Assembly (NCBI GenBank): GCA_001790445.1
Contig: MGCQ01000001.1
Span: 40,462 to 104,461 of the forward strand
DNA: 64,000 nucleotides
Source: Candidatus Saccharibacteria bacterium RIFCSPHIGHO2_12_FULL_41_12
GTDB taxonomy: Bacteria > Patescibacteriota > Saccharimonadia > Saccharimonadales > 2-12-FULL-41-12
Direction: 5' to 3'
Position numbers and translations under genes: made by a program. Of this stretch, positions 1,338 through 55,098 are shown one piece after another (position 1 is the stretch's first letter; each line of letters starts with the position of its first letter). Under the pieces are notes generated by a model. It did no database searches, was not told where the DNA came from, and saw only the letters and a program-made list of their open reading frames with translations.

Positions 1338-1700
1338 ATGAATATTTTGCTAAAGCCACGAATTACAGAAAAGACTTACTCTCTTGCGCTGAAGCAAAAT
1401 ACATACGTTTTTGACGTCTTAGGCGAAACAAACAAGATAGAGATTGCTAAGCTTGTTCAGAGCACTTATGATGTAACCCCAGAAGTTGTCAGAATAGCTA
1501 TCGTCAAAGGCAAGACAAAGCGTTCATATCGCAAAGGTGGCAAGGTTGTCTCTGGCAAACGAGTAGACGTTAAAAAAGCGTTTGTTCGTATAAAGGACGG
1601 TGAGTCGTTACCATTTTTTGCAGAAATTCAGGCAGAAGAAGAAAAAGAGAAAAAAGTAGCAGAAAAAGCTGCAAAAAAAGCCAAAAAGGATAAGAAATAA
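1338..1700 (+). CDS. rplW: 50S ribosomal protein L23, with Lys/Glu-rich C-terminal tail
   Basis: KPRITEKT N-terminus, size and position between rplD and rplB. Confidence 0.88.
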   Translation: MNILLKPRITEKTYSLALKQNTYVFDVLGETNKIEIAKLVQSTYDVTPEVVRIAIVKGKTKRSYRKGGKVVSGKRVDVKKAFVRIKDGESLPFFAEIQAEEEKEKKVAEKAAKKAKKDKK

Positions 1701-2536
1701 TGGCCATTAAGCAATACAAGCCAACTACACCCGGACGACGTGGCATGACCAGCCAAGATTTTGACGGTATTACGACTAAAAGACCTCTAAAATCGCTTTT
1801 GGCGGTTAAAATACGCGGTTCCGGCCGAAACAACCAAGGTCGCATCACTACTCGCCATAAAGGCGGAGGTGCCAAGAAATTTTATAGGATTGTTAACTTT
1901 AATCTTCCGGCAGGAACAGAGGCCACTGTCGAACATATAGAATATGACCCGAACCGTAGCGCCAGAATTGCCAGAATCAAAGATCAAAATAACCAGTATC
2001 ACTACATACTTGCCCCATTAAAATTAAATCAGGGGGACAAGATCAGCGTTGGAGAAGAAGTCTCAATAGAAAATGCCAACAGACTCCCACTGTCGAGTAT
2101 CCCTACAGGTAGTGTTATTCATAGTATCGAGGTAAACCCAGGAAAAGGCGCTCAGATGGTGCGAAGTGCAGGGACTAGCGCTCAACTAGTAGCAAAAGAA
2201 GATAATTACGCACAGATCAAGTTGCCTAGTGGCGAGGTACGACGAGTTCTTCTAATCTGTATGGCTAGCATAGGAGTTGTTGGTAATGAGCAACACCAAA
2301 ACATCAAAATCGGTAAAGCTGGTAGATCACGCCATAAAGGTATTAGACCGACAGTCCGTGGTGTCGTGATGAATGCAGCTGACCATCCTCATGGTGGTGG
2401 AGATGGAGGCCGTCACGGTATTGGTGGTGATCCACGTACGCCTTGGGGCCAGAAAACGTTAGGATTTAAGACCAGAAGTCGTAAGAAAGTCAACAAGCTA
2501 ATTTTAAGAAGCAGACACATAGGTAAAAGGAAGTAA
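1700..2536 (+). CDS. rplB: 50S ribosomal protein L2
   Basis: KPTTPGRRG and DHPHGGGDGG motifs. TAATG overlap with rplW. Confidence 0.96.
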   Translation: MAIKQYKPTTPGRRGMTSQDFDGITTKRPLKSLLAVKIRGSGRNNQGRITTRHKGGGAKKFYRIVNFNLPAGTEATVEHIEYDPNRSARIARIKDQNNQYHYILAPLKLNQGDKISVGEEVSIENANRLPLSSIPTGSVIHSIEVNPGKGAQMVRSAGTSAQLVAKEDNYAQIKLPSGEVRRVLLICMASIGVVGNEQHQNIKIGKAGRSRHKGIRPTVRGVVMNAADHPHGGGDGGRHGIGGDPRTPWGQKTLGFKTRSRKKVNKLILRSRHIGKRK

Positions 2537-2537
2537 A

Positions 2538-2654
2538 ATGCGTATAACGAATAAAGTAGACCGTATAACGGAAAATAAAATAATCTTGACACTTCGGAAT
2601 CCCGTACCACGTACTACTTTATACGTACTACAGCAACAGGAGGTTGCCCGATGA
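2538..2654 (+). repeat. Structured intergenic insert, copy 1 (117 nt; 38-codon mini-[41 protein letters not shown])
   Basis: Shares the CGTATAACG 5' arm, the TTATACGTACTAC 3' arm and the GCAAC-AGGAG-GTTGC hairpin with copies 2-5. ATG lies 1 nt after the rplB stop; TGA overlaps the rpsS ATG (ATGA). Confidence 0.8.
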
Positions 2655-2926
2655 GTAGATCACTGAAAAAAGGACCATTTATAGATCCAAAACTTGCAAA
2701 AAAGGTAGCTGCTCAGGTTAAAGATGACCGAACAGTAATAAGAACATGGGCACGATACTCTGCAATTTCACCTGAATTTGTCGGTAAAACTATAGCTGTT
2801 CATAATGGCAAAGTTCATGTTCCTGTGTTTATTACGGAAAACATGGTGGGGCATAAACTTGGTGAATTTGCTCCGACACGTAAATTCCGCAGTCACGGTG
2901 GCAAACTAGCGAAAGGTCAAAAATGA
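2651..2926 (+). CDS. rpsS: 30S ribosomal protein S19
   Basis: [10 protein letters not shown]...[27 protein letters not shown]. Confidence 0.96.
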
Positions 2927-3033
2927 GTATAACGAATAAAGTATACCGTATAACGGAAAAGGCTGAATTACTAGTTCAGCCCGTAATACGTAATACGAAC
3001 CCCGTACTACAGCAACAGGAGGTTGCTCGATGA
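2923..3033 (+). repeat. Structured intergenic insert, copy 2 (111 nt; 36-codon mini-[39 protein letters not shown])
   Basis: ATGA overlaps at both ends (rpsS stop and rplV start). Central hairpin GGCTGAA/TTCAGCC at 2961-2981. Confidence 0.8.
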
Positions 3034-3470
3034 GTGTTAAGGCTGTCGCAAAAAACGTGCGAATTAGTCCTCGCAAAGTAGCGATTGTAGCTGGGCTTGT
3101 GAGAGGACGATCTGTTGAAGATGCTCTAACTATTTTATCTCATACCCCACGTCGTTCTGCTACAGCGGTCAAAAAAACTATCGAAAGTGCTAGAGCAAAC
3201 GCCGAGAACAATCACAACTACAAAGCTGAGACATTACAGATTGTCTACATTAGCGTAACGCCAGGGACAAAACTTAAGAGATTTCGTCCAGCAGCTCATG
3301 GTCGAGCGCTACCATTCCAAAGAAAGTCCAGCCATATAACTGTTCATGTTGACGGAGAAATGCGCGGTTCAAAGAAAACCGACCAAAGCGGCAAAGAGAC
3401 AAAGAAAGAAGCTAATCCTGCGACCAAGAAGCCAGATAAAAAGAAAATTACAAAGAAGGAAACCAAGTAA
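3030..3470 (+). CDS. rplV: 50S ribosomal protein L22, with Lys-rich C-terminal tail
   Basis: ISPRKV motif and operon position. Confidence 0.93.
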   Translation: MSVKAVAKNVRISPRKVAIVAGLVRGRSVEDALTILSHTPRRSATAVKKTIESARANAENNHNYKAETLQIVYISVTPGTKLKRFRPAAHGRALPFQRKSSHITVHVDGEMRGSKKTDQSGKETKKEANPATKKPDKKKITKKETK

Positions 3471-4099
3471 TGGGACAAAAAGTCAACCCTATCAGTATGA
3501 GGCTCCAAGTCAACAAGGATTGGCGAAGTAAGTGGTTTGTGCCAAAAAGGGATTATGCCGCATACCTAACCCAAGATCTTAAAGTCCGAAAACTTATAGA
3601 TGACAAAGTAGGCATACGTGGTGCAATCAACAAAGTTGATATCGAGCGCTCTCCAAGCCTTGTCACTGTCACAATTTCTACTGCAAAGGCTGGGGTTATT
3701 ATTGGCCGTGGGGGTACAGGTGTCTCAGAGCTAAAAGAAAAGATCCAAGCAATTTACAAAGTCAACACTCGTATCAACATTGAAGAGATCAAAAAAAGTG
3801 AGCTTTATGCAAAAATTGTTGCAGAGAATATTGCAAATCAATTGAGCCGTCGTATTTCGTTCCGCCGAGCCATCAAACAATCTGCAGCCGCAACCATGAG
3901 AGCTGGAGCAAAAGGTATTCGTGTCGAGGTTGCCGGAAGATTAAACGGCGCAGAAATGTCTAGACGGGAAAAAGAAGTCCTGGGTAGTGTCCCGCTTCAT
4001 ACTATACGTGCTGATATTGATTATGCATTTGTACCCGCCCAGACTGCAGCCGGCATTATCGGTGTTAAAGTCTGGATTTATAAAGGAGAGGTTTTATAA
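3470..4099 (+). CDS. rpsC: 30S ribosomal protein S3
   Basis: MGQKVNPIS N-terminus, KH-domain GRGG motif. TAATG overlap with rplV. Confidence 0.96.
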   Translation: MGQKVNPISMRLQVNKDWRSKWFVPKRDYAAYLTQDLKVRKLIDDKVGIRGAINKVDIERSPSLVTVTISTAKAGVIIGRGGTGVSELKEKIQAIYKVNTRINIEEIKKSELYAKIVAENIANQLSRRISFRRAIKQSAAATMRAGAKGIRVEVAGRLNGAEMSRREKEVLGSVPLHTIRADIDYAFVPAQTAAGIIGVKVWIYKGEVL

Positions 4100-4102
4100 A
4101 TC

Positions 4103-4519
4103 ATGCTTTTACCAAATAAAATGAAATACAGGAGAGTGATGAAGGGTCGAGTTCGAGGCCCTGCTACCTCAGGCAACTACATCGCATATGGACAATACGC
4201 GCTTCAAGCCCAAGGTCACGATAGAGTGACTAGTAGACAGATTGAGGCATCCAGACAAGCCATGACTCGTTATATTAAACGCGGGGGCAAAATTTGGATA
4301 AGAATTTTCCCGCACACCCCTGTTACAAAGAAACCAGTTGGTCTTAAAATGGGTGGCGGCAAAGGATCACCAGAATTTTACGTTGCCAAGGTCAAACCCG
4401 GGACTATTCTTTTTGAAATGGAAGGCGTTAAAGAAGAAGTTGCTAAAGAAGCCATGAGGCTTGCAGGTCATAAATTGTCAGTCAAAACGAAGTTTATCGT
4501 TCGGGAGACAAACCAATGA
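4103..4519 (+). CDS. rplP: 50S ribosomal protein L16
   Basis: [12 protein letters not shown]-terminus, [12 protein letters not shown] motif. Confidence 0.95.
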
Positions 4520-4716
4520 AAGTTATAGAAATACGAAAAATGCCAGTTAACGAGTTGATCAAGACCTCTAACGTTCTTAGGGATGAAATAATTGATTCTA
4601 AAAAAAGAGTACACATGGGCGAAACGACCAACAACAGAATAATAAGGAAAAAAAGAAAAGATTTAGCTCGTGTGCTAACTGTTATGCGCGAACAGCTTGA
4701 AAAGGAGAATGCATAA
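4516..4716 (+). CDS. rpmC: 50S ribosomal protein L29
   Basis: 66 aa, ATGA overlap with rplP, operon position. Confidence 0.85.
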
Positions 4717-4717
4717 T

Positions 4718-5005
4718 ATGGCGAAAACATTAACCGGCACTGTGGTGTCAACTAAAGCAAATAAAACTATTGTAATTGAAGTACATGCACGAAAAACTCA
4801 CCCTATCTATAAAAAACAATACTCGGTTACCAATAGAATAATGGCTCACGACGAAAATAGTCAGGCAAAGATGGGCGACAAAGTCACTGTTGTAGAAATT
4901 CGTCCAATATCAAAGAACAAACACTTTGCTCTCAAAAATGTTCTGTCACATGCAGCACTTACAAAAGAGGACAAAGCAGTAATTGACCAAGAGGAGGTTG
5001 CTTAA
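4718..5005 (+). CDS. rpsQ: 30S ribosomal protein S17
   Basis: [22 protein letters not shown]. The ATG at 4718 has an AAGGAG upstream; the ORF-track start at 4697 lies inside rpmC. Confidence 0.92.
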
Positions 5006-5006
5006 G

Positions 5007-5375
5007 GTGATCCAACAAGAATCAAAACTTGGTGTTTGTGACAACAGCGGTGCAAAAGAGATACTTTGTATCCGTGTTCTTGGTGGCACCCGCAGACGTT
5101 ACGCTGGTGTTGGAGACATTATTGTGGCAACTGTTAAACAGGCAGCTCCAAATGGCACCGTCAAGAGAAAATCAGTCGTCAGAGCAGTTATTGTTCGGAC
5201 AAAGAACTCAATCAAGCGAAAAGACGGATCAGTTATTAAATTTGACGATAATGCTGCTGTGATTATTGGTGACGATAAACTGCCGCGAGGAACTCGTATT
5301 TTTGGCCCTGTACCTAGAGAATTAAGAGAAAAAGGTTTTGCAAAAATTGTTAGCCTTGCCCCGGAGGTACTATAA
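5007..5375 (+). CDS. rplN: 50S ribosomal protein L14
   Basis: GTG start gives (M)[16 protein letters not shown], the canonical L14 N-terminus. GAGGAGG SD at 4991-4997. Confidence 0.94.
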
Positions 5376-5708
5376 ATGAGTGATAAAATATACAAAATCA
5401 GATTAAAAAAAGGTGACACAGTCGTTGTCCTGGCTGGAAAAGACAAGGGGAAAACCGGAATTGTCGAGTCTACTCATCCCCGTGAGAACAAAGTGACAGT
5501 AAAGGGTATCAATGTTTACAAAAAGGCAGTCAAACCTGACAAAACACATCCAAAAGGCGGGATCATAGACATAACTAAACCTATTTGGGTCAGTAAAGTC
5601 GCCTTGCAGGAGCCCACGTCTAAAAAACCGTCAAAAATAGGATATAAGTTGACTAAAGACGGAACAAAAGTACGTATTTATAAGCGTACAGGGAAAGGGG
5701 TCAAATAA
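5376..5708 (+). CDS. rplX: 50S ribosomal protein L24
   Basis: KOW motif KKGDTVVVLAGKDKGKTG. Confidence 0.93.
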   Translation: MSDKIYKIRLKKGDTVVVLAGKDKGKTGIVESTHPRENKVTVKGINVYKKAVKPDKTHPKGGIIDITKPIWVSKVALQEPTSKKPSKIGYKLTKDGTKVRIYKRTGKGVK

Positions 5709-6283
5709 TGTCCGATAAATCCACCGCAAAATATATCCCAAGACTCAAAAAGGAGTTTAATGACACCTATAAATCTGAACTAAAGAAAGAACTTGGCCTT
5801 AGCAATATTAATGCTGTTCCTTCACTGGAAAAAATTGTTATAAATATTGGACTCGGAAAATCAAAAGATGACAAAAAAATGTTTGAGGTAGCCACCAATA
5901 CAATTGAAAAGATTACTGGACAGAAACCAATCATGACGTATTCAAAGGTCAATGTGGCGTCTTTTAAGCTTCGAGAAGGTAACAAAATTGGCATGAAAGT
6001 CACTTTGCGTGGTGATCGTATGTTTGAGTTTCTAGACCGTTTTGTCAATATTGTTATGCCTCGTCAAAGAGATTTTCACGGTGTATCAAACAAGTCTTTT
6101 GATTCACAAGGCAACTTTTCAATAGGAGTTGTTGAGCAGTCAATATTTCCAGAACTAAGTTTTGAAGAAACAACCTCGCCACACGGACTTCAAGTGGTTA
6201 TAGTAACAAAATCAAACGGTAAAGAAGAAGCACGGGCTCTTCTTGTGAAGTTCGGTGTACCGTTTATGAAAGAAGGTAAATAA
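5708..6283 (+). CDS. rplE: 50S ribosomal protein L5
   Basis: Length, spc-operon position and conserved central region ([16 protein letters not shown]). Confidence 0.94.
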
Positions 6284-6284
6284 C

Positions 6285-6554
6285 ATGGCAAAAAAATCAA
6301 TTATAGCCAGAGATGCAAAAAAGAACAAAATGATCGCTAAAGATGCCAAAAAACGCCAGGAACTCAAAGATTTAGGTGATTTTGACAAATTACACCTAAT
6401 GCGACGTAATGGTGCACCTTCCAGACATAAAAATCGCTGCCAAGAAACCGGACGACCACGTGCATATATGAGAACATTTGGGCTATCTAGAATTAGTTTT
6501 AGAGAACATGCAGTAAAGGGAGAAATCCCTGGTATAACAAAGGCAAGTTGGTAA
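6285..6554 (+). CDS. rpsN: 30S ribosomal protein S14 (long form without a Cys4 zinc motif)
   Basis: [25 protein letters not shown]-terminus; 89 aa. Confidence 0.93.
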
Positions 6555-6562
6555 GGAGTATT

Positions 6563-6958
6563 ATGGTATCTACAGATCCAATATCAGATATGTTAACGAG
6601 AATACGCAATGCAATAGCTGTGTCAAAAACACAAGTTGAAATGCCATATTCAACTGTGAAGTTTCGGGTTGCTGGAATTTTAAAAGACAATAATTTCCTT
6701 GACGATGTCTCACAAAAGGGAGAAGGCATAAATAGAAAAATTGTCGTAACCATCAACACAGAAAACTCCAATGCGCGTATTACTGAGATAGCAAGGTTGA
6801 GCAAACCCGGACGAAGAAAATACGTCAAAGCTGACCAAGTCCCAACCGTCAAACGTGGACGTGGTATTGTGATAGTTTCTACGTCAAAGGGTCTTATGAC
6901 AGGCGCTGAAGCAAAGAAAACCAACATTGGCGGAGAATTAATTTGTCAGGTATATTAA
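6563..6958 (+). CDS. rpsH: 30S ribosomal protein S8
   Basis: DPISDMLTRIRNA motif. ATG 6563 follows AAGGAG 6553-6558. Confidence 0.94.
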   Translation: MVSTDPISDMLTRIRNAIAVSKTQVEMPYSTVKFRVAGILKDNNFLDDVSQKGEGINRKIVVTINTENSNARITEIARLSKPGRRKYVKADQVPTVKRGRGIVIVSTSKGLMTGAEAKKTNIGGELICQVY

Positions 6959-6959
6959 C

Positions 6960-7070
6960 ATGAGTATAACGAATAACGTATACCGTATAACGGAAAAGGC
7001 TGGATTACTAGTTCAGTCCGTAATACGTAATACGAACCCCGTACTACTGCAACAGGAGGTTGCTCGATGA
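6960..7070 (+). repeat. Structured intergenic insert, copy 3 (111 nt; mini-ORF MSITNNVYRITEKAGLLVQSVIRNTNPVLLQQEVAR)
   Basis: Differs from copy 2 at only 4 positions. ATG lies 1 nt after the rpsH TAA; TGA overlaps the rplF ATG. Confidence 0.8.
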
Positions 7071-7606
7071 GTCGTATAGGAAAACTACCAATCAAAATTG
7101 AACCTGGTGTGACAATCACTGTTGACAATGATTTTGTGCGTGTCGAGGGGCCCAAGGGTAAACTTGAACAGTTCACCATGCCTGACGTCAATATTGAGCA
7201 AAAAGATGGAGAGATAATTGTCACAAGAGAAAATGACGAGATAGAAAATAGATCAAAACATGGTCTGATGCGTTCATTAATCCAAAATATGATAATAGGA
7301 GTGACAAAAGGGTTCGAGAAGCAACTAGAAGTCAACGGAGTTGGGTTTCGGGTTGCACTTGCTGGGACTGATCTCAAGATGAATCTTGGTTTTTCTCATG
7401 AAGTTGTTTATCCTGTTCCGGAATATGTAAAAGCTGAAGTTAAACAAAACGTGATTACTATTTCTGGAATAAGCAAACAACAAGTTGGTCAGGTCGCAGC
7501 CGAAATACGTTCTCTAAAAAAACCAGAGCCATATAAGGGCAAAGGTATCAAGTATGTTGGCGAAAAAATTATACGAAAAAGTGGTAAATCTGGTAAGGAC
7601 AAATAG
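7067..7606 (+). CDS. rplF: 50S ribosomal protein L6
   Basis: MSRIGKLPI N-terminus; PEPYKGKGIKY motif. Confidence 0.95.
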   Translation: MSRIGKLPIKIEPGVTITVDNDFVRVEGPKGKLEQFTMPDVNIEQKDGEIIVTRENDEIENRSKHGLMRSLIQNMIIGVTKGFEKQLEVNGVGFRVALAGTDLKMNLGFSHEVVYPVPEYVKAEVKQNVITISGISKQQVGQVAAEIRSLKKPEPYKGKGIKYVGEKIIRKSGKSGKDK

Positions 7607-7613
7607 GAATATT

Positions 7614-7967
7614 ATGAATAGAATATTAAATAAAGTAAAACATGCTAACAGGCGGGCTATTAAAGTTCGTTCGCGTGTTGTTGGCACAAGTGAGCGACCT
7701 AGAATGAGCGTCAGTGTTAGCAATAAAAATATCTCTGTGCAGATAATTGATGACGGAAAACATCAGACAATTGCCAGCGTCACCACTGTTGGATCAAAGA
7801 TAGAAGGAACTATGACCGAAAAAGCTGAAATAATTGGCACAGAAGTTGCAAAAAAAGCTAAAGCAAAAAAGATCAAAAAAGTTTCTTTTGACAGAGGCTC
7901 AAAGCTTTACCATGGTCGCGTAAAAGCACTTGCTGATGCAGCAAGAAAAGAAGGATTGGAGTTTTAA
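7614..7967 (+). CDS. rplR: 50S ribosomal protein L18
   Basis: FDRGSKLYHGRVKALADAARKEGLEF C-terminus. The ATG at 7614 lies after the rplF stop. Confidence 0.92.
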   Translation: MNRILNKVKHANRRAIKVRSRVVGTSERPRMSVSVSNKNISVQIIDDGKHQTIASVTTVGSKIEGTMTEKAEIIGTEVAKKAKAKKIKKVSFDRGSKLYHGRVKALADAARKEGLEF

Positions 7968-7968
7968 A

Positions 7969-8628
7969 ATGGCTATAAATCAACCACAAAACAATCCAGA
8001 TTTACTAGCTGGAGAAAATCCGTACGAAGAAAAAGTAGTAAATATTGATCGTGTTGCCAGAGTCGTCAAAGGTGGTCGTCGCTTTAGGTTCCGCGCACTT
8101 GTTGTAGTGGGAGACAAAAAAGGTCAGGTTGGAATTGGAGTGTCAAAAGGAGCTGATGTAACCGCAGCAGTCACCAAAGCTACTCAAGTCGCAAAAAAGA
8201 ATATTCAAACTGTAACAATAGAAAACGGCACATTTCCTCATGAAGCGCAGGCTAAAGTTAGCGGAGCTAATATACTGATTATGCCTGCAAGTGCCGGTAC
8301 TGGTTTAATCGCCGGTGGTGTTGTTAGAGTAGTGCTTGAGGTTGCTGGTGTTCAAAACGCTCTTAGTAAGTCTCTGGGCTCCGCGAATAAGATTAACGTT
8401 GCCTATGCCACGCTAAAAGCGCTGATGTCTATCAAGCCAAAATCTGAATGGGTTAATCCTCCTCGTAAATTTGTTAAGACACCTGTTCAGGACAAACCAG
8501 AACCTAAGGTTGAGCCAAAACCAGAGATTAAACCTAAAGAAACGCCAAAGCCAAAAAAAGCTGCCACCAAAAACACTAAACCCAAGAAGCCCGCAGCCAA
8601 AAAGTCAACCTCAAAGGATAAAAAATAA
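7969..8628 (+). CDS. rpsE: 30S ribosomal protein S5, with Pro/Lys-rich C-terminal extension
   Basis: [36 protein letters not shown]. Start MAINQP at 7969. Confidence 0.94.
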
Positions 8629-8712
8629 TGAATCACGTTAGAATATTGACGACTTATCATATACTAGACATAAACGACTCTGACGTGGTTGGGAAGAAAG
8701 GATTCTAACGTG

Positions 8713-9183
8713 ATGAAATATTCAGATCTTTCACTGACAAAAAAGAAGTCAAGCAAAAGAGCAGGGCGCGGTATATCTGCTGGTCGGGGTAAAACAGCAG
8801 GTCGTGGGACAAAAGGCCAAGGTTCACGTAAAAGTGGTGGCGTCAAGCCTGGCTTTGAAGGCGGCCAAATGCCTCTGTACAAAAGAATTCCTAAGCTCAG
8901 AGGCTTTAAATCGCACAGACCTAAAGCTCACAACATCAAAACTTCAGTACTTGACGATCTTAAACTAAAAAAAGTTGATAATTTTGTACTTGCTGACAAG
9001 GGTTTGTTGCCCGATGCATACTCGAAAGTTAAATTAATAGCTGACAAAGATATCAAAACAGCGGTAGAAGTTAGCTTGCAAGGGGCCAGCACATCAGCAG
9101 CCGCGAAGCTCGAAAAAGCAGGCGGATCGTTTATAAAAATTCCTCAAAACCTGCGACCAAAAACATCAAATAAATCTAAATAA
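8713..9183 (+). CDS. rplO: 50S ribosomal protein L15
   Basis: GRGISAGRGKTAGRGTKGQGSR motif. It follows rpsE directly, with no rpmD between them. Confidence 0.92.
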   Translation: MKYSDLSLTKKKSSKRAGRGISAGRGKTAGRGTKGQGSRKSGGVKPGFEGGQMPLYKRIPKLRGFKSHRPKAHNIKTSVLDDLKLKKVDNFVLADKGLLPDAYSKVKLIADKDIKTAVEVSLQGASTSAAAKLEKAGGSFIKIPQNLRPKTSNKSK

Positions 9184-9186
9184 TAT

Positions 9187-9215
9187 TTGGACTAATATAC
9201 AAATAGTGATATAGT
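9187..9215 (+). promoter_or_regulatory. Putative sigma70-type promoter for the 9244 ORF
   Basis: TTGGAC (9187-9192), 17 nt, TATAGT (9210-9215). Confidence 0.45.
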
Positions 9216-9243
9216 ATGTCAATATATTATTGAAGGATTTAAA

Positions 9244-9585
9244 ATGAGTGAAAAAAGAATACGCGTGACAGAAGTTTCCTTTGACATTTTAGACATGTTA
9301 CTAAGAGGCAGAGATGATAAAAGCTTAAGTGAACTGGGCGCAGAAGTTTTTATTGTGGATGATCTGGAAGATGCATTTTTTTTGCCGAGAGGTGATGATA
9401 GAAGTGATTTAAGTTTGTTCTACAGCTGGTTTAACAAGCGAACAAACGGAGATACCGCATGGTTCGATCAGATTGCCACCCACCCCATACAATACGCATT
9501 TTCAGACTACGGACGAGAAGTTCTGGAACGATTCATGAAAAAAGACGCTCGGTTGCTAGGTGCTCAAGCCCTTGAAGCAGCATAA
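9244..9585 (+). CDS. Hypothetical acidic protein (113 aa) inserted between rplO and secY
   Basis: Only long ORF in the gap; AAGGA 8 nt upstream; no recognisable motif. Confidence 0.55.
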   Translation: MSEKRIRVTEVSFDILDMLLRGRDDKSLSELGAEVFIVDDLEDAFFLPRGDDRSDLSLFYSWFNKRTNGDTAWFDQIATHPIQYAFSDYGREVLERFMKKDARLLGAQALEAA

Positions 9586-9653
9586 GTAAAAATTACATTT
9601 AGATATTCCAGCGAAGTTGTATATAATATATAGAATATTTTAGAGGGTAATCT

Positions 9654-11144
9654 ATGAATTGGAAGATAATTTGGAAGTCATTCGCAGATCGAGATATGCA
9701 AAAACGCATATTTGCTGTGCTTGGGATAATTGTTGTCTACCGCGTCATGGCTCATATACCGATCCCGATTGGTGATTCAGCCACTGTCAGACAAGTCATT
9801 GATTCTATATTTGCCTCTACCAATTCTTCTCAGTTTTTAAATTTTGTCAATGTCCTGACAGGTGGGGCCCTGGCTAATTTTTCAATTATGTTGGTCGGAC
9901 TTGGTCCATACATTAATGCCAGTATTATTATGCAACTTCTCACCAAGGCTCTGCCAAAACTGGAAGAACTGAATAAAGAAGGTGAATTTGGACGTAAAAA
10001 GATTAATCAGTACACACGTATGCTCACTCTGCCACTTGCGGTTGTTCAGTCTATTGGGATGATTTACATTGTTAAGCAACAAGCGGCCAGTGTGGCGGGT
10101 CTTGGTGACATTACGGCAAATTCCTCTTTGTTGCAATGGATTTTGATGGTCTGTGCGCTGACAGGTGGTGCAATGATCATGATGTGGCTTGGCGAAATGA
10201 TCACAGAACAAAACATCGGTAACGGAATATCTCTACTAATTACCGTAAGTATCGTTAGTTCTCTTCCTAGAAGCATAGCTTCGTTAGTTAGCTCTGTGTT
10301 TGGTCAATCCTCCTCATGGCAAGTTTTTGGTGTCAATCTACCCATATCAAAAGAGTCCGCTATAACGGCAACAATAATTTCTGCCAGTATAGTCATTTTA
10401 TTAGTATGTGTAGTCAAGCTTAATGAAGCCAGGAGGAATTTAACGGTATCTTATGCAAAAAGGGTCAAAGGAAGCCGCGAATACGGTGGCGTGACCACAG
10501 TTTTACCAGTTAAAATGATAACTGCAGGAGTAGTCCCTATTATATTCGCAGTGGCGTTTTTAAGCTTGCCGACTTTTGTTGGTCAAATACTAAGCTCAAA
10601 CTCAAGCCAAGATCTTCAACAAACCGGCGCTACATTAACAAAAATATTTCAAACACCCACCGCACAAAGCTTTCAGGCGGGCGAAATAACTGCATATATA
10701 TATCCTGTCGCGTATTTTCTTTTAGTATTTTTCTTTACATTTTTCTATACCAGCATAGCCTTTAATGCAAAAGAAATAGCCGAAAATATGCAAAAACAAG
10801 GAGGATTTATCTCTGGAGTTAGAAGCGGACCTAGAACTGAAAAATACTTGAGTTCTGTGGTGATGCGCCTAACTCTTTTTGGCGCTGTATCTATTGGGCT
10901 ACTTGCAGTTATGCCAATAATTGGTGAAATATATTTAGGCAATAACATCGCGGTAAGCGGTACGAGTATTCTTATTTTGGTTGCTGTATCTCTTGAAACA
11001 CTACGTCACATTGAGTCAAGAGCTCTCATGATAACGTATGATCAATATGATGGATCAGATTACTTTCAGCAAGTAGAGGCCAAAAAGTCTAAATTCGCTA
11101 GGGTTAAATCGTTACTAACAAAAGCCAAAAAAACAAACAAATAA
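9654..11144 (+). CDS. secY: Preprotein translocase subunit SecY, with extended C-terminus
   Basis: Multi-TM protein with a SecY-typical N-terminus (RIFAVLGIIVVYRVMAHIPIPI); position after rplO. Confidence 0.95.
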   Translation: MNWKIIWKSFADRDMQKRIFAVLGIIVVYRVMAHIPIPIGDSATVRQVIDSIFASTNSSQFLNFVNVLTGGALANFSIMLVGLGPYINASIIMQLLTKALPKLEELNKEGEFGRKKINQYTRMLTLPLAVVQSIGMIYIVKQQAASVAGLGDITANSSLLQWILMVCALTGGAMIMMWLGEMITEQNIGNGISLLITVSIVSSLPRSIASLVSSVFGQSSSWQVFGVNLPISKESAITATIISASIVILLVCVVKLNEARRNLTVSYAKRVKGSREYGGVTTVLPVKMITAGVVPIIFAVAFLSLPTFVGQILSSNSSQDLQQTGATLTKIFQTPTAQSFQAGEITAYIYPVAYFLLVFFFTFFYTSIAFNAKEIAENMQKQGGFISGVRSGPRTEKYLSSVVMRLTLFGAVSIGLLAVMPIIGEIYLGNNIAVSGTSILILVAVSLETLRHIESRALMITYDQYDGSDYFQQVEAKKSKFARVKSLLTKAKKTNK

Positions 11145-11169
11145 TCAACATAATTCAACTAAAAAAGCT

Positions 11170-11199
11170 TTGACAAATGTGGTCACACTCTGATATAGT
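11170..11199 (+). promoter_or_regulatory. Putative promoter for infA-rpmJ
   Basis: TTGACA (11170-11175), 18 nt, TATAGT (11194-11199). Confidence 0.5.
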
Positions 11200-11218
11200 T
11201 GATAGATTAGTTATATTT

Positions 11219-11440
11219 ATGGTCAAGAATAAAGAAGTTATTGAACTTACCGGCAGAATAGTTGAAACACTACCCGGGACTCAGTTCAAATTAGAACTTG
11301 AAAATGGTCATCAAATTATAGCTCACGTCGCAGGAAAAATGAGAAAACACTATATTCGACTTGTTCCTGGTGACACCGTTAAGGTCGAGTTGACCCCTTA
11401 CGATCTTTCTAAGGGCAGAATCACCTACCGGGTTTCATAA
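11219..11440 (+). CDS. infA: Translation initiation factor IF-1
   Basis: [46 protein letters not shown]. Start taken at MVKNKE. Confidence 0.95.
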
Positions 11441-11489
11441 ATTAAGCAGTGTGCCACGCTCACAATTACATAGAAAGTGCGAGGTCCGT

Positions 11490-11606
11490 ATGAAAGTACG
11501 TGCAAGTGCCAAAAAAATTACAGCTGATGACAAGATCGTTCGACGAAAAGGACGTGTCTATGTAATTAACAAACTAAAACCTAAGCACAAACAGAGGCAA
11601 GGCTAA
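11490..11606 (+). CDS. rpmJ: 50S ribosomal protein L36 (Cys-less form), 38 aa; too short for the ORF track
   Basis: My translation: [38 protein letters not shown]. Position between infA and rpsM. Confidence 0.92.
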
Positions 11607-11608
11607 AA

Positions 11609-11725
11609 ATGTGTATAACGAATAACGGGTGTCGTATATCGGAGAATCTTAAACACAAAGAAGTTTTTGCCGTAATACGTAATACGAGCTACGTAATACA
11701 GAAGCAGGAGGCTTCTCGTGGCTAG
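11609..11725 (+). repeat. Structured intergenic insert, copy 4 (117 nt; mini-[41 protein letters not shown])
   Basis: ATG lies 2 nt after the rpmJ TAA; TAG 11723-11725 overlaps the rpsM GTG 11718 by 8 nt. SD hairpin GAAGC-AGGAG-GCTTC covaries with the other copies. Confidence 0.75.
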
Positions 11726-12104
11726 AATCGCTGGCGTAACAATTCCTTCTGAAAAACGAGTAGTTATTGCTCTAACATATGTTTACGGGATAGGTAGAAA
11801 ACATTCTTCAGAAATTCTAACAAAGGCAAAAATTGACGAATCAGTTCGAGTAAAAAACTTAACAGACGCCGAAATTGGACGTATTTCTGATGTGATTGGC
11901 AAAGATTACATAGTAGAAGGTGATTTGCAAAGAATCGTTACAGGGAACATTAAGCGGCTCAAAGACATCAATGCTTATAGAGGTCTTAGACATAAGAACA
12001 ATCTACCGTCTCGTGGTCAAAGGACAAAGACAAATGCACGAACTCGCCGAGGACGAAAACTCACTGTGGGCGGTACCGCTAAAAAGGTAGCATCTAAAAC
12101 TTAA
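11718..12104 (+). CDS. rpsM: 30S ribosomal protein S13
   Basis: (M)[10 protein letters not shown]-terminus, GTG start. Confidence 0.95.
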
Positions 12105-12115
12105 ACAGAGAAATT

Positions 12116-12517
12116 ATGGCAGAAAATCAACCCACCACAACTACTAGAAAGAAAAAGTCCAAAAGAACAGTATCAAATGCCATTTTGCATGTGTTTTCGT
12201 CATTCAACAACACAATTATTACGATCACTGACACTAATGGCGGTGCTTTGACGACTTCAAGCGCTGGTGCGTGTGGATTTAGAGGCAGCAAAAAAGGTAC
12301 GGCATACGCAGCTCAAGTTGCAGCACAGAAGGCTATTTCAACTGCAAAACAACAGTACGGTGTTAGCAAAGTTAACGTCAGCATCAAAGGTATCGGTATG
12401 GGTCGTGAGGCAGCCGTAAGAGTGTTAATTTCTGAAAATATTGCTGTAGAGTCCATAAAAGATGTGACTGGTATTCCGCACGGTGGTTGCAGACCAAGAA
12501 AGGCACGTAGAGTCTAA
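12116..12517 (+). CDS. rpsK: 30S ribosomal protein S11
   Basis: FNNTIITITDTNG...GSKKGTAYAAQVAA. Confidence 0.95.
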   Translation: MAENQPTTTTRKKKSKRTVSNAILHVFSSFNNTIITITDTNGGALTTSSAGACGFRGSKKGTAYAAQVAAQKAISTAKQQYGVSKVNVSIKGIGMGREAAVRVLISENIAVESIKDVTGIPHGGCRPRKARRV

Positions 12518-12518
12518 A

Positions 12519-13133
12519 ATGGCAAGAGATCGTAGCCCAATTGTAAAAATGAGTCGTAGAGAAGGATATGCCCTTCATCCAAAGGCTCACAAAGCTCTTG
12601 TTAAACGACCGGGGACTCCTGGACAAACTAGTGGTAGGTTTAGAGCAAAACCAAGCCAATATTCACTACAATTGAGAGAAAAGCAAAAAGTACGAAGGTT
12701 ATACGGTCTTCTTGAACGACAATTTCGACGCCTCATGGAAGAAGCAAGCAAAACATCTGGTCAATCAGGCCAAGTTTTACTCCGATTTTTAGAACAAAGA
12801 GCTGACAATGTTGTCTACAGGAGTGGATTCGCAGTATCACGTCGAGCTTCCAGACAACTTGTTACACATGGTCATTTTGAACTTAACGGCAAACGAGTAG
12901 ATATCCCATCAATCCGACTAAAAGAGGGGGACATGCTTACTCTCAGAGACAAAAGCAAAAAGTCTGAGTATTTTTTGAAAATTGACGATGTGAGCCCACA
13001 CCCCAGCGATATCCCAAGCTGGATTAAGGTGGACCGCAAAAAATTTGTAATTACAGTTATCGGTGTTCCTTCTAGAGAAGAAGCAGAGCCGGATATTAAT
13101 GAGCAACTAATAGTAGAGTATTACTCACGATAA
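12519..13133 (+). CDS. rpsD: 30S ribosomal protein S4
   Basis: MARDRSPIVKMSRREG N-terminus. Begins right after the rpsK stop. Confidence 0.94.
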   Translation: MARDRSPIVKMSRREGYALHPKAHKALVKRPGTPGQTSGRFRAKPSQYSLQLREKQKVRRLYGLLERQFRRLMEEASKTSGQSGQVLLRFLEQRADNVVYRSGFAVSRRASRQLVTHGHFELNGKRVDIPSIRLKEGDMLTLRDKSKKSEYFLKIDDVSPHPSDIPSWIKVDRKKFVITVIGVPSREEAEPDINEQLIVEYYSR

Positions 13134-13152
13134 ATAGGAGGACAAGAGAAAT

Positions 13153-14115
13153 ATGAGCAAAACAATTCACTCACCAGGAGTAGTCAAAGTAGAGGAGATA
13201 ACGCCTTACAACGCTACACTATCGATAGAGCCACTTCATAATGGATATGGCATGACATTAGGGAACAGCTTACGTCGTGTTTTGCTTTCCTCTATCTCAG
13301 GAGCTGCTGTGACCGGTTTCATGATAGAAGGGGTTAGTCACGAATTTACTACTATTAAGGGAGTTCAAGAAGACGTTGTCGATATTATTTTGAACCTCAA
13401 AAAAATACGGTTTCGAGTTTTTTCTGACGAGCCGCAAACGCTTAAATTGACCAAAAAAGGTAAAGGAACAGTTACCGCAAAAGATATTGCAAAGAACGCA
13501 AATGTAGAAATTGTCAATCCAGGCCAAAAAATTGCGACAATTGGTGAAGATAAAGGATCTATAGCAATAGATCTTATAGTAGAAACAGGACGTGGTTACA
13601 AAAGTGTAGAAGAAAATGCTAAAAACCAACATATTAGTGACATGGTTTCTATTGACGCGATATTTACTCCTGTACACAGGGTGCGCTATAAAGTAGAGAA
13701 CACTCGTGTTGGGCAAATGACTGACCTTGATAAGTTAATTATTACAATCGAAACTGACGGCAGTATCACTGCAAAAGAGGCTTTTGAAGAAGCTAGTGCA
13801 ATTTTGATTAATCAATACACAGCACTTGCTGGTCAAACACGAATAGAAGCAACAGCTGCTCTTAGTGCGTCTGCGCCAGAAGGGGCATTTGAAAAAGAAG
13901 CGGATACAGATTTCGATGATGGTGAATCTGCTCTGATGACTTCTATCGAAGATTTGAATTTATCAGCTCGCACAACAAATGCACTTGTAAATAACGATAT
14001 ACACACTCTTAAAGATTTATTTAACCTCAGTGATGTTGATCTAAAAGAACTTAAAGGTTTTGGTAGCAAAGCACTTGATGAGGTTAAAGACAAGATGGCG
14101 GAGTTGGAATTCTAA
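13153..14115 (+). CDS. rpoA: DNA-directed RNA polymerase subunit alpha
   Basis: N-terminal domain (LEPLHNGYGMTLGNSLRRVLLSS) and C-terminal domain (LNLSARTTNAL). Confidence 0.96.
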   Translation: MSKTIHSPGVVKVEEITPYNATLSIEPLHNGYGMTLGNSLRRVLLSSISGAAVTGFMIEGVSHEFTTIKGVQEDVVDIILNLKKIRFRVFSDEPQTLKLTKKGKGTVTAKDIAKNANVEIVNPGQKIATIGEDKGSIAIDLIVETGRGYKSVEENAKNQHISDMVSIDAIFTPVHRVRYKVENTRVGQMTDLDKLIITIETDGSITAKEAFEEASAILINQYTALAGQTRIEATAALSASAPEGAFEKEADTDFDDGESALMTSIEDLNLSARTTNALVNNDIHTLKDLFNLSDVDLKELKGFGSKALDEVKDKMAELEF

Positions 14116-14116
14116 A

Positions 14117-14233
14117 ATGTGTATGACGTATAACGAAGAACGTATAACGGAATATTCAAAGCAGGTCGCTTCCGTAGCGACCTGGCGTGATACTTTATAC
14201 GTACTACTGCAACCAGAGGTTGCTCATGCATAG
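14117..14233 (+). repeat. Structured intergenic insert, copy 5 (117 nt; mini-ORF MCMTYNEERITEYSKQVASVATWRDTLYVLLQPEVAHA)
   Basis: ATG lies 1 nt after the rpoA TAA; TAG 14231-14233 overlaps the rplQ ATG 14226 by 8 nt. Central 9-bp hairpin at 14162-14184. Confidence 0.75.
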
Positions 14234-21810: not shown

Positions 21811-22224
21811 TTAAGGTTTAGACTTTATATACTTAAGCTTTCGCCAAGCTCTACCTTTACACTTGTTTAAATTTCTATAACTTGGAGTGAGCGAATGACA
21901 GTTAGGGCACAATAAACGTAGATTACTTTCGTTATTGTTTTCAGCATCTCCATCTATATGATCTACTTCAAGCGGGGAATTTCCTGTAACTCTATTTGTT
22001 TTGTTCCAGCCACAAAATGAGCATGCTTGTTTGTTTTTCTCGAGCAAGTATCTACGTATGTGTTTAGAAATATTTCTGGCTGAGATTCCTCTACTGCCTG
22101 TCACTTCATTGTTTTTCCATTTGTTAATGTACTCTTGGTGCTGATAATCTAATTGGCATTGATTTGAGCAGTATATGTACGAAAGTTTTGCTTTTCGATT
22201 ACTGCACATTATGCAATATTCCAT
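21811..22224 (-). CDS. HNH endonuclease
   Basis: EVDHIDGDAENNNESNLRLLCPNCHS HNH core plus N-terminal Cys-rich region. Confidence 0.85.
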   Translation of the reverse strand: MEYCIMCSNRKAKLSYIYCSNQCQLDYQHQEYINKWKNNEVTGSRGISARNISKHIRRYLLEKNKQACSFCGWNKTNRVTGNSPLEVDHIDGDAENNNESNLRLLCPNCHSLTPSYRNLNKCKGRAWRKLKYIKSKP

Positions 22225-30651: not shown

Positions 30652-31080
30652 ATGGCAGAAAAAAAGATCAAAGCGAATTTAAAAATGAAAATTCCAGCCG
30701 GCAAAGCTAGCGCAGGGCCACCTGTTGGTTCGACCCTCGGTCAATATGGCGTTAGCATGATGGATTTTGTTAATCCATTTAATGAAGCCACTCGCGACAT
30801 GGGCAATGTTACGGTTACGGCGCATATTACGGTTTACGAAGACAGAAGCATGAAATTCCGTGTTGTGGGAGCCCCAACAGACGACTTAATTCGGGCAAAG
30901 TTGGGCATTGCTAAAGGATCTGGCAAACCAAACACAGAGAAACTGGAACAAAAGCTATCGCAGACCGACCTGAAATCTATTGCAGAAGATAAGGCCCAAG
31001 ATATGAACACCGACGACATTGAATCAATAAAGAAAATGGTTGCTGGCACAGCCAGAAGCATGGGAATCGAGGTACAGTAA
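30652..31080 (+). CDS. rplK: 50S ribosomal protein L11
   Basis: IPAGKASAGPPVGSTLGQYGV motif. Confidence 0.95.
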   Translation: MAEKKIKANLKMKIPAGKASAGPPVGSTLGQYGVSMMDFVNPFNEATRDMGNVTVTAHITVYEDRSMKFRVVGAPTDDLIRAKLGIAKGSGKPNTEKLEQKLSQTDLKSIAEDKAQDMNTDDIESIKKMVAGTARSMGIEVQ

Positions 31081-31388
31081 TGGCAGTTGTAAGTGGCATG
31101 CCGTCAGATCGCAAAGGGTTTGAAAGAAACGCAGGATTTAATACATTTGCCAAGAATATTAGAGCTGCAGCGAACAGAAGTGGTCTGCCCTTAAGAGATT
31201 CAAGTTTGTCGCGGGAAACACCAGCTAACGGGCAATACATACCCAAAAGTGTGCATGAACTCGCAGAACTAGCTACGCAAGCTATTGTTGAGAATAATGA
31301 TCGATATCGAGGTTTATCGGCTAGCGCAAGAGCCTTACAGGTGGCAGAAGACGCTGCTAATGCATTTACGAATCAGGAAGCCAAATAA
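31080..31388 (+). CDS. Hypothetical protein (102 aa) inserted between rplK and rplA
   Basis: TAATG start/stop overlap with rplK. No recognisable motif. Confidence 0.5.
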   Translation: MAVVSGMPSDRKGFERNAGFNTFAKNIRAAANRSGLPLRDSSLSRETPANGQYIPKSVHELAELATQAIVENNDRYRGLSASARALQVAEDAANAFTNQEAK

Positions 31389-38979: not shown

Positions 38980-39082
38980 TACATGTTTTGTTACAATATT
39001 TGCATAGTTGCCAGAGACAGTAGCGGCTCGAAAGAGATTTAAGAATGCTACCTAGGTGTTAATCATTTAACGACTTCTAGAC

Positions 39083-39111
39083 TCTTGTTGGCACAAAACA
39101 AGAGTTTTTTT
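39083..39111 (+). terminator. Intrinsic terminator/attenuator in the rplJ leader (possible L10-leader element)
   Basis: CTCTTGTT-ggcaca-AACAAGAG followed by T7, 66 nt upstream of the rplJ ATG. Confidence 0.55.
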
Positions 39112-39176
39112 GTAGCAACTTTTCGGTAAATAACAGGTCGATTACCGGATATATTAACTAAAAAGGCAAAAAATCT

Positions 39177-54414: not shown

Positions 54415-55098
54415 TTAGATTATCTTTCGATTTAATTCATCTTTATTGTACGTTCTTTTGCCAAAATCGTCAACTCTTTTCGCTCCTCTATTAAAGCTAT
54501 ATCTATTCAAATTATCTTTAACGACCGAAACAACGTATACTTTATCCCCTAAATCATCAATGATCTTTTGTACGTTGTTCGGCACCTCTTCGCATGCTTT
54601 TAAGAATCCTTTTCTTTCGATACCTCGTTTTGTGTCAATTTCTCTTGCTTTAGTAATATCCCAAGCCACAAGAGGATCTTGATAGATATAGAATAAGCCA
54701 ACAAAGTATCCATGGTTAAGAGCTCTTTGAATATTGTGTGCACCTTTGCTATGAGCAAAGGTGCCGTCTAGAGCAAAATTATATTTCTTTTCTGTGACAA
54801 TATCTAGAGTCTTCTCGATTATTGGATTAGCTGAATCGCGATACATATAATATTTGTCAGCACTATAATTTTCAAAATATTCCACGATAGTATCTAGGTC
54901 AATTTTGACGAATGGATCAGGTGAGCTTGCGAGAAATTGCTCAAGGAACTCTGTTTTTCCTGCTCCTGGAATACCTGCCATAAAAATAGCAATAGGCTTA
55001 TCTACAGGCACCGCACCTGAAGCTGAAATAATCTTTTCAGCTATCTTCTTACGATTCTTCTTTGCCCATTCTTTATTATTGATAACCCTCATGTTCAC
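54415..55098 (-). CDS. Zeta-toxin-family P-loop kinase-like protein
   Basis: Walker A FMAGIPGAGKTEF; ~227 aa with zeta/AAA_33-like layout. Confidence 0.7.
   Translation of the reverse strand: MNMRVINNKEWAKKNRKKIAEKIISASGAVPVDKPIAIFMAGIPGAGKTEFLEQFLASSPDPFVKIDLDTIVEYFENYSADKYYMYRDSANPIIEKTLDIVTEKKYNFALDGTFAHSKGAHNIQRALNHGYFVGLFYIYQDPLVAWDITKAREIDTKRGIERKGFLKACEEVPNNVQKIIDDLGDKVYVVSVVKDNLNRYSFNRGAKRVDDFGKRTYNKDELNRKII

Follow-up and report, generated by a model that had tools for sequence, protein, structure and literature searches.

Palindromic heptamer repeats with bridging open frames at ribosomal protein gene junctions of a Saccharibacteria genome

The S10–spc–alpha cluster of ribosomal protein (r-protein) genes is among the most conserved and compact regions of bacterial genomes, and repeats of ~110 nt at up to 14 of its junctions are unexpected. 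What are the repeats that separate r-protein genes in Candidatus Saccharibacteria bacterium RIFCSPHIGHO2_12_FULL_41_12, and how does a tightly coupled operon accommodate them? We analysed a 64,000-nt stretch of this genome, hereafter the window (GCA_001790445.1, contig MGCQ01000001.1, positions 40,462–104,461 of the forward strand), in which an initial annotation made from the sequence alone had proposed five paralogous structured inserts at normally contiguous gene junctions. We found that each insert is a palindrome built of tandem heptamers that carries an open reading frame (ORF) from the stop of one gene to the start of the next. With moderate confidence, and on sequence evidence, we favour the view that this is a repeated, probably mobile, palindromic heptamer element that may persist in coupled operons by means of a relay mini-cistron with a strong ribosome-binding site.

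Insertions at contiguous gene junctions

Coordinates are window positions unless a locus number (L) is given. L001 is the same contig and extends upstream of the window; 60 loci were fetched around SecY homologues, with their r-protein genes placed by tblastn, and further loci came from metagenome and protein searches. At the five junctions concerned, most Saccharibacteria have −1 to 25 nt, against 103–114 nt in the window, and in junction alignments the insert fills precisely the space from the upstream stop to the downstream start. The stop of rpmJ (L36, 38 aa), for example, lies 0–8 nt from the rpsM start in relatives and is separated from it by 111 nt here. The closest species representative (L008, SecY identity 82%) holds an element at none of the five junctions. 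These short junctions in relatives identify the copies as insertions, and the proposal of a paralogous insert family at normally contiguous junctions is supported.

The five related copies occupy exactly the intervals first assigned to them and share a mean column identity of 78%, far above chance. A 30-nt pattern of the 5′ arm, allowing up to three mismatches, matches the window three times and none of 100 window shuffles, and CGTATAACGG with at most one mismatch occurs 14 times in the window (1.7 expected), 11 of the 14 inside copies. All copies follow one order of parts, namely a 5′ arm, a variable centre, a 3′ arm and a small hairpin presenting the Shine–Dalgarno (SD) sequence, and alignment bears out both this layout and the earlier count of only 4 positions that differ between copies 2 and 3. 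A covariance model trained on the five window copies recovers them at 89–123 bits and finds a sixth copy at rpsL–rpsG, upstream of the window, at 77 bits. This sixth copy contains a 38-codon ORF with a TAG stop inside rpsG and is the closest paralogue of copy 5, the central hairpins of the two being nearly alike. No further copy was recovered by the model from the rest of the window (50 kb) or the 10 kb beyond it; a weak match at 54938–55092 (−) lies inside a coding region, has no resemblance to the elements and was dismissed.

An assembly or chimera artefact, or chance similarity, has practically no probability. The only point in its favour is that repeats can in general be collapsed when metagenomes are assembled. 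The independent assemblies ERZ4903070, SRR2090157, ERZ27254767 and ERZ27254752 contain identical copies, which are therefore no assembly artefact, and related copies occur in metagenome-assembled genomes and contigs of separate, unrelated studies. By chance the 5′-arm pattern is expected to match zero times. Chance expectation and independent assemblies together already refute both explanations. Differences in two strain variants (L003 and L005) are confined to contig ends and say nothing about the elements.

The inserts had also been described as no known r-protein leader, ribozyme or repeat, and this stands. At the Rfam gathering threshold the whole window yielded five tRNAs and an L10 leader and nothing at the copies; a permissive search (E up to 10) of 2450–3100 gave no match; and elements of a second family described below (L028) returned only chance miRNA and snoRNA models far below threshold. 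The L10 leader, upstream of rplJ, scored 51 bits, above its gathering score, which shows that classical leaders are detectable in this genome where they are present. Sense-strand terminators were found in no copy, and the only promoter-like site was a single weak one (9/12) in copy 1. An intrinsic terminator or promoter cassette was rejected on the lack of a GC stem with U-tract and of consistent −35/−10 hexamers on the sense strand.

The bridging frame and its peptide

The initial annotation overlooked the coding side of the inserts, for each interval that it treated as a structured insert is precisely an ORF. In all six copies of this genome frame 1 is open over 36–38 codons, and frames 2 and 3 hold 2–5 stops each. 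The ATG of the mini-ORF overlaps the upstream stop (ATGA) or follows it by 2–3 nt, which places it at −3 to +3 nt overall in 6/6 copies, and it takes the position that the start of the downstream gene has in relatives. In copy 1 this is the ancestral rpsS start position, and the SD-like AAGGAAG in the 3′ end of rplB now serves the mini-ORF start. At the other end the stop of the mini-ORF falls past the downstream start by +3 to +7 nt in 6/6 copies, either in an ATGA overlap or 8 nt inside the gene. Its 3′ end contains AGGAG, 7–9 nt ahead of the downstream start, where it takes up the loop and the 3′ side of a hairpin of 5 bp; 97.6% of the cells of this hairpin are paired, and two of its five pairs are changed on both sides across copies. 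All the marks of a leader cistron (a start by the upstream stop, a stop over the downstream start and an SD inside the ORF) are thus present in 6/6 copies. Each copy appears to be a translationally coupled mini-ORF rather than solely a structured non-coding RNA.

The same design recurs in sequences unrelated to those of the window. A bridging ORF is present in about 55 of the 58 Saccharibacteria elements tallied, which belong to at least ten unrelated heptamer families; these ORFs start −7 to +10 nt from the upstream stop and end −5 to +12 nt from the downstream start. Among 47 elements, a frame is open across the insert in 45 on the sense strand, in 23 on the antisense strand and in a mean of 13.9 (maximum 22) after composition-matched shuffling. 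Stop triplets in total number 328 on the sense and 293 on the antisense strand, despite the openness of the sense frame. The copies behind these statistics are not independent of one another, though they come from ten or more unrelated sequence families. Within the family of the window the effect can be followed to single heptamers. The 7-nt unit passes through all three reading phases across three units, and the third heptamer, the one unit in which the TAA of TATAACG would be in frame, is altered in every copy (to TATACCG, TAGACCG, TAGAACG, GGTGTCG or AAGAACG). Heptamers out of frame keep this TAA, and the pattern holds for the six copies of this genome and for family members elsewhere. Judged by these patterns, the openness of the bridging frame is under selection, and what selection appears to keep is the openness and placement of the frame, not its product.

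Could the peptide itself be the functional product, as a family of micro-proteins of 35–40 aa encoded between r-protein genes? Nearly all copies have an intact ORF, public assemblies call these ORFs as genes, their location predicts expression at r-protein level, and a motif recurs (MRITYNVERIT...VIRNT..V...PEVS). A profile of the five peptides retrieved 14 small relatives from 1.84 billion representative proteins, and a word-indexed protein search found 29 related proteins. The pattern of change points the other way. Variable columns are spread over codon positions 1, 2 and 3 as 23, 23 and 24 of 38, with no third-position excess, and codons with a single difference give a synonymous to non-synonymous count of 48:164, near the neutral expectation. 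The residues that look conserved are a mere translation of the conserved heptamers and SD. The centre of the peptide is swapped wholesale between paralogues, other families of the same architecture encode unrelated peptides, and neither Pfam nor NCBIfam has a match to the mini-ORF peptides. By this evidence the peptide evolves neutrally and is a by-product, not conserved as a protein; the micro-protein explanation is highly improbable.

Table 1 Copies of the element, their parts and reference genes
Feature	Position	Strand	Description
rplB	1700–2536	+	upstream gene of copy 1
Copy 1, rplB–rpsS	2538–2654	+	38-codon ORF; covariance model 114 bits
Copy 1, 5′ heptamers	2543–2570	+	TATAACG AATAAAG TAGACCG TATAACG
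Copy 1, 3′ heptamers	2603–2630	+	CGTACCA CGTACTA CTTTATA CGTACTA
Copy 1, SD hairpin	2633–2647	+	GCAAC-AGGAG-GTTGC
Copy 1, stop TGA	2652–2654	+	overlaps rpsS ATG at 2651
Copy 2, rpsS–rplV	2923–3033	+	36-codon ORF; 121 bits; called as gene in public assembly
Copy 2, start		+	mini-ORF ATG overlaps rpsS stop (ATGA)
Copy 2, 5′ heptamers	2928–2955	+	
Copy 2, central hairpin	2961–2981	+	GGCTGAA/TTCAGCC
Copy 2, 3′ heptamers	2982–3009	+	CGTAATA CGTAATA CGAACCC CGTACTA
Copy 2, SD hairpin	3012–3026	+	stop at 3031–3033 overlaps rplV ATG at 3030
Copy 3, rpsH–rplF	6960–7070	+	36-codon ORF; 123 bits
Copy 3, 5′ heptamers	6965–6992	+	
Copy 3, central hairpin	6998–7018	+	two G.U wobbles relative to copy 2
Copy 3, 3′ heptamers	7019–7046	+	
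Copy 3, SD hairpin	7049–7063	+	stop overlaps rplF ATG at 7067
rpmJ	11490–11606	+	upstream gene of copy 4
Copy 4, rpmJ–rpsM	11609–11725	+	38-codon ORF; 110 bits
Copy 4, 5′ heptamers	11614–11641	+	
Copy 4, 3′ heptamers	11671–11698	+	
Copy 4, SD hairpin	11701–11715	+	GAAGC-AGGAG-GCTTC; two compensatory pairs relative to other copies
Copy 4, stop TAG	11723–11725	+	8 nt into rpsM (GTG at 11718)
Copy 5, rpoA–rplQ	14117–14233	+	38-codon ORF; 89 bits; fold z −3.9
Copy 5, 5′ heptamers	14122–14149	+	
Copy 5, central hairpin	14162–14184	+	9 bp
Copy 5, 3′ heptamers	14187–14207	+	
Copy 5, SD hairpin	14210–14224	+	stop TAG at 14231–14233 inside rplQ (ATG at 14226)
Sixth copy, rpsL–rpsG	L001 782–898		77 bits; ~6.6 kb upstream of window start
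L10 leader	38993–39119		upstream of rplJ

Heptamer palindromes across operons and genomes

The arms had been read as pairs of 9-nt units; each is instead a row of some four heptamers in tandem. Read directly, the 5′ arm is TATAACG AATAACG TATACCG TATAACG and the 3′ arm CGTAATA CGTAATA CGAACCC CGTACTA. In every one of the six copies of this genome, and in 25/25 elements, the strongest autocorrelation is at lag 7 (or 14), and arrays of lag 7 number 25 in 1.07 Mb, against 8, 5, 5 and 1 for lags 5, 8, 10 and 11. Families have unrelated arm sequences, yet each keeps its arms complementary; this speaks strongly for palindromy that either matters or is renewed all the time. Across families the 5′ arm tends to be purine-rich and the 3′ arm pyrimidine-rich, and a search for a common heptamer consensus gave none that was convincing. 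The period is not absolutely fixed, as two elements of L074 (1178–1319 and 6597–6723) have the same architecture with 8-nt units (CAGTCCTT and CCAGTCTT). The L6–L18 junction of the same locus (2395–2472) contains the sole direct-only array encountered, CCCCACT four times followed by GCGACTGAAAGGAGC, with a 25-codon bridging ORF and no complementary arm; it may be a half-element or a precursor.

The covariance model found no copy in 22 other Saccharibacteria SecY loci, and a first exact-pattern scan, which was too strict, gave 0 matches in 185,579 species genomes. Sister families came to light through junction lengths and lag-7 periodicity, not through sequence similarity or models. In this way four inserts were found in L019 and at least nine, of another family, in L028, all of 92–130 nt and composed of an ATG at the upstream stop, 4–5 tandem heptamers, a loop, complementary heptamers, GCGACTGRAAGGAGC and a stop placed on the start of the next gene. 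The heptamers of these inserts, such as GGAGTGA/CTTCTCA, AAAGTTA/ACTTTCT and CAGTCTC/GACTAGC, are unrelated to those of the window.

A metagenome pattern scan added two further members of the family of the window. One, in a relative with neighbouring genes of ~79% nucleotide identity (L068), lies at rpsH–rplF, the site of copy 3, and is a mosaic, with 35/35 nt of the 5′ arm identical, a different centre and a 3′ arm resembling copy 1 or 5. The other, in a distant, higher-GC species (L069), occupies rpsN–rpsH instead, and at rpsC–rplP this locus has another element, whose sequence is unrelated. Relatives of the mini-ORF peptides, retrieved without any r-protein criterion, led to r-protein operons in L072, L074, L078 and a JGI contig and to type IV pilus operons in two samples (L073 and L077). 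The pilus copies show that the family is not restricted to r-protein genes, and the r-protein junction specificity implied at the outset does not hold. In L072, 14 junctions of one r-protein operon carry a heptamer palindrome, from at least five heptamer families, and L078 has seven copies of the family of the window within 6 kb. At least eight further (meta)genomic loci or contigs contain this family, 29 called mini-proteins belong to it, and it occupies different junctions in different genomes, in keeping with the earlier suggestion of an old family rather than a recent duplication. So far elements occur only inside long co-directional operons and always in sense orientation; the terminator and promoter gaps of L072 and other examined loci contain none. 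In r-protein operons of Paceibacterota (L039 and L043) and Doudnabacteria (L066), heptamer palindromes occur without a bridging ORF. One pilus element, between PilM and the next gene (L073 8510–8636), consists of CAACAGT five times and AACTGTY four times, and its CAACAGT is presumably the same heptamer as one cyanobacterial STRR repeat.

Do these palindromes act as RNA? By analogy with T7 R-sites and Correia- or ERIC-like repeats, the hairpin might be an adaptive, cis-acting signal of intercistronic processing or stability (for example an RNase III site or exonuclease barrier). The elements would then segment or tune long, highly expressed operon mRNAs, and the mini-ORF would just let ribosomes and their protection against polarity cross. 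Hairpin potential is indeed retained in every family despite unrelated arms. The confinement to long co-directional operons, to the exclusion of promoter and terminator gaps in the same loci, fits such a role, as do the ORF-less versions in other Patescibacteria and the conservation of arms beyond that of the flanking genes (see below). The SD hairpin shows compensatory changes, and so do the central hairpins when the sixth copy is compared with the L069 copy. The folding evidence is less favourable. Fold z-scores of copies against shuffles are moderate (−1.2 to −3.9), and the long stem within the family of the window is paired at 86%, against 84% in shuffles. The sense strand is more stable than the antisense strand in 12 of 25 elements (Wilcoxon p = 0.71), and in several the antisense strand is far more stable. 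With weak covariation of the long stem and no sense-strand folding advantage, a function of RNA structure is not demonstrated, and the functional structural reading of the initial annotation is not upheld. In addition, the patchy occurrence among species, with L008 free of elements at five junctions, fits poorly with an essential regulator, and continuous translation of the mini-ORF would hold the hairpin melted. We regard an adaptive RNA role as unlikely, while noting that a role of this kind would suit the exclusive occurrence in r-protein and pilus operons. In the Doudnabacteria element (L066 9855–9985), folding energies are −54.7 kcal/mol for the antisense and −24.9 kcal/mol for the sense strand, with 11 G.U pairs and strongly one-sided mismatches.

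Persistence, spread and known systems

If the mini-cistron is translated, as its design suggests, the ribosome that ends the upstream cistron would re-initiate at the mini-ORF ATG by means of the old SD in the 3′ end of the upstream gene. It would then pass through the palindrome, unwinding the hairpin, and terminate on top of the downstream start beside the SD of the element, from which it could re-initiate on the downstream gene. Coupling across the ~110-nt insertion would in this way be relayed, not broken, and the intercistronic RNA kept covered by ribosomes. The palindrome itself most likely arises by heptamer slippage, as a selfish or mutation-driven repeat, and probably spreads by copying between junctions and between genomes, with only those versions and orientations that carry a relay cistron surviving where essential operons are tightly coupled. 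The hairpin may also have a secondary effect in cis on the processing or stability of the mRNA.

Several observations weigh against this relay account. The ORF-less palindromes of Paceibacterota and Doudnabacteria indicate that the relay ORF is not essential to the class. Mobility has no mechanism as yet: Pfam lists for ~80 kb around the copies contain no transposase, reverse transcriptase or RAYT, and there is no clear target-site duplication, since ATGAGT flanks copies 2 and 3 only, where it is the gene start too, and the candidates at other copies match at 3–5 of 6 positions. The 5′ arm is 80–89% identical between the window and L069, L072 and L074, while the flanking r-protein genes have only 53–73% nucleotide identity, a degree of conservation that a purely selfish, drifting repeat does not predict. 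It implies either purifying selection by way of a sequence-specific partner or recent horizontal spread. For the latter, Saccharibacteria are described as naturally competent (PMC10633639), and recombination would find its best homology arms in highly conserved operons, which could account for the spread as well as the operon preference.

Alternatively, the element may act at the DNA level, its heptamers serving as iteron-like sites or as a cruciform for a DNA-binding protein, recombinase or transposase, with coding and RNA features secondary. Palindromy is equal on both strands, and arm sequence is kept across species far beyond that of neighbouring genes. Heptamer iterons are also found elsewhere, as CGTATAA three times beside the origin hairpin (CCTAGG-tCAGTATTAC-CCTAGG) of a CRESS-type single-stranded DNA virus in an IMG/VR contig (L079 3940–3990); these viral iterons share a heptamer with the family of the window, and we judged them unrelated and the match a coincidence. 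The same ~80 kb of Pfam lists offers no candidate enzyme, however, the many unrelated heptamer families in one genome would need many binding proteins, and strict operon co-orientation and the start, stop and SD design would be left unexplained. We consider a DNA-level function very unlikely.

Two further genes are of note. The sole nuclease-like gene noticed near the operons is a 137-aa HNH-endonuclease-like ORF beside tRNA-Thr and rpmG (21811–22224, −). About 8 kb past the window end, an 85-aa protein (L070 10541–10798, −) has a single RRM_1 RNA-binding domain and is a possible candidate for a heptamer reader. Small RRM proteins are also in use in cyanobacteria, a group with abundant heptamer repeats.

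Full-text literature searches, Rfam, Pfam and NCBIfam returned no description of these elements, and we compared them with the nearest known kinds. Tandem heptamers are the first of these. Those of cyanobacteria, the STRR heptamers, were reportedly described by Mazel in 1990. Other intergenic examples are TAACTGA in Beggiatoaceae, Cyanobacteria and Bacteroidetes (MacGregor 2015, PMC4679880) and GGGAATC and GGGGAYT in Xanthomonas and Nostoc (Rehm 2015, PMC4692102), where the excess of heptameric repeats and the slippage hypothesis are also summarised. Like the present arrays, the published ones comprise 2–6 tandem 7-nt units, are intergenic, lie often just upstream of starts and in r-protein operons, and vary in unit sequence by lineage; some are inverted pairs forming stem-loops (PMC4692102). 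Their proposed functions are polymerase slippage or binding of S1, Csp or CsrA, Csp having been proposed for the TAACTGA repeats (PMC4679880). By analogy, binding of the hairpin or arms by a heptamer-reading protein such as Csp is a possible additional adaptive role here. The arrays described here differ in being paired and complementary, forming one palindrome of ~85–130 nt exactly between stop and start. They carry a start, an open frame, an SD and an overlapping stop, and their families are multi-copy, with loops and tails in common. No published heptamer repeat is described as a translated relay cistron.

A second comparison is with palindromes resembling MITEs (transposable elements of the miniature inverted-repeat type), such as Correia/NEMIS in Neisseria, ERIC/IRU in Enterobacteria and Yersinia, RUP and BOX (PMC2229807, PMC3184786, PMC10969869). 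These are ~100–150 bp long with inverted-repeat ends, occur in many copies within transcription units, form mRNA hairpins, in some cases altering processing or stability, and are patchy among strains. The present elements resemble these, with terminal inverted repeats in the form of mutually complementary arms. Unlike them, they have no parent insertion sequence within ~80 kb, no clear target-site duplication and arms that are tandem heptamers, and they combine strict operon orientation and a mini-cistron coupled at both ends with one architecture across unrelated families. REP and REPIN elements, GC-rich hairpin units of 20–40 nt with a GTAG or CGTC head and an associated RAYT gene, were rejected, because the arms are ~30-nt heptamer arrays that are not themselves hairpins, the Pfam lists (~80 kb) contain no Y1 transposase, and GTAG appears only as the reverse complement of the 3′ end in the family of the window and is lacking in other families. 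The initial annotation had seen the closest analogy in Rickettsia palindromic elements (RPEs), which insert without breaking translation. The comparison points in the right direction, in that a palindromic repeat is tolerated in translated sequence with host gene expression intact. RPEs insert in frame within host proteins, whereas the present copies are separate ORFs, each between an upstream stop and a downstream start and none fused into a host protein, and there is no sequence similarity; an RPE was rejected as the identity of the element.

In function, the closest analogue is the synthetic bicistronic design (BCD), reportedly introduced by Mutalik in 2013. As in BCD and in leader-cistron coupling generally, a short cistron has the downstream SD in its 3′ end and a stop overlapping the next start (ATGA or TAATG), an arrangement in which ribosomes on the leader melt local structure and pass to the next gene. 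To our knowledge, natural leader cistrons are single, gene-specific arrangements; the leader here is instead part of a repeated, probably mobile, palindromic cassette at many junctions. Translational coupling by termination–reinitiation has been reviewed (PMC12548453). Autoregulatory r-protein leaders, finally, include the S7 site at rpsL–rpsG, the S4 site before rpsM, and those of S8 and L4 (PMC3616713). They too are structured RNAs at some of the same positions (rpsL–rpsG and upstream of rpsM). The present elements differ from them in that one family occupies six junctions, occurs in pilus operons as well, has no Rfam match and is absent from most relatives.

None of the nearest known kinds combines paired heptamer arrays, a cistron coupled at both ends and repetition at many junctions. 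We tentatively raise the possibility that the elements form a class of their own, of 'relay cistron' cassettes colonising the tightly coupled r-protein and type IV pilus operons of Saccharibacteria by virtue of their own start, open frame, ribosome-binding site and overlapping stop. If so, the better-conserved arms of one family would imply a dedicated heptamer-reading protein or nuclease, or active horizontal spread by recombination within conserved flanks in competent cells. The design would be a natural version of an engineering trick by which an insertion into a coupled operon is rendered harmless, and it would offer a clean system for termination–reinitiation. The excess of tandem heptamers in bacteria, long unexplained, would also be tied to an architecture that is defined and can be tested. 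Should the hairpins control the processing or stoichiometry of r-protein mRNAs, they would add a new layer of ribosome-synthesis control in organisms lacking classical leaders. For annotation and phylogenomics of the candidate phyla radiation, such elements mean 'hypothetical proteins' that are spurious, intergenic distances that are inflated and marker operons whose assemblies break at repeats.

The r-protein junctions in question seem to receive extra cistrons quite generally in Saccharibacteria. In relatives the same junctions hold ordinary small ORFs that are not palindromic (L008 3295–3640, L026 3457–3726, L029 7653–7938, L028 1752–2234 and 7345–7497). Inserts of this ordinary type measure 301, 225 and 438 nt at rplB–rpsS, and at rpsH–rplF there is an insert of 241 nt in L029 and a 35-aa hydrophobic peptide in L028. 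In the window, an unannotated 102-aa ORF at 31080–31388 lies between rplK (L11) and rplA (L1) and is not a heptamer palindrome, and a 113-aa ORF at 9244–9585 lies between rplO and secY. Upstream on the same contig, ORFs of 156, 86 and 154 aa lie between fusA and tuf (L001 3478–4730), and one of 152 aa between rpsJ and rplC (L001 6793–7251); like the two in the window, these four have no Pfam match.

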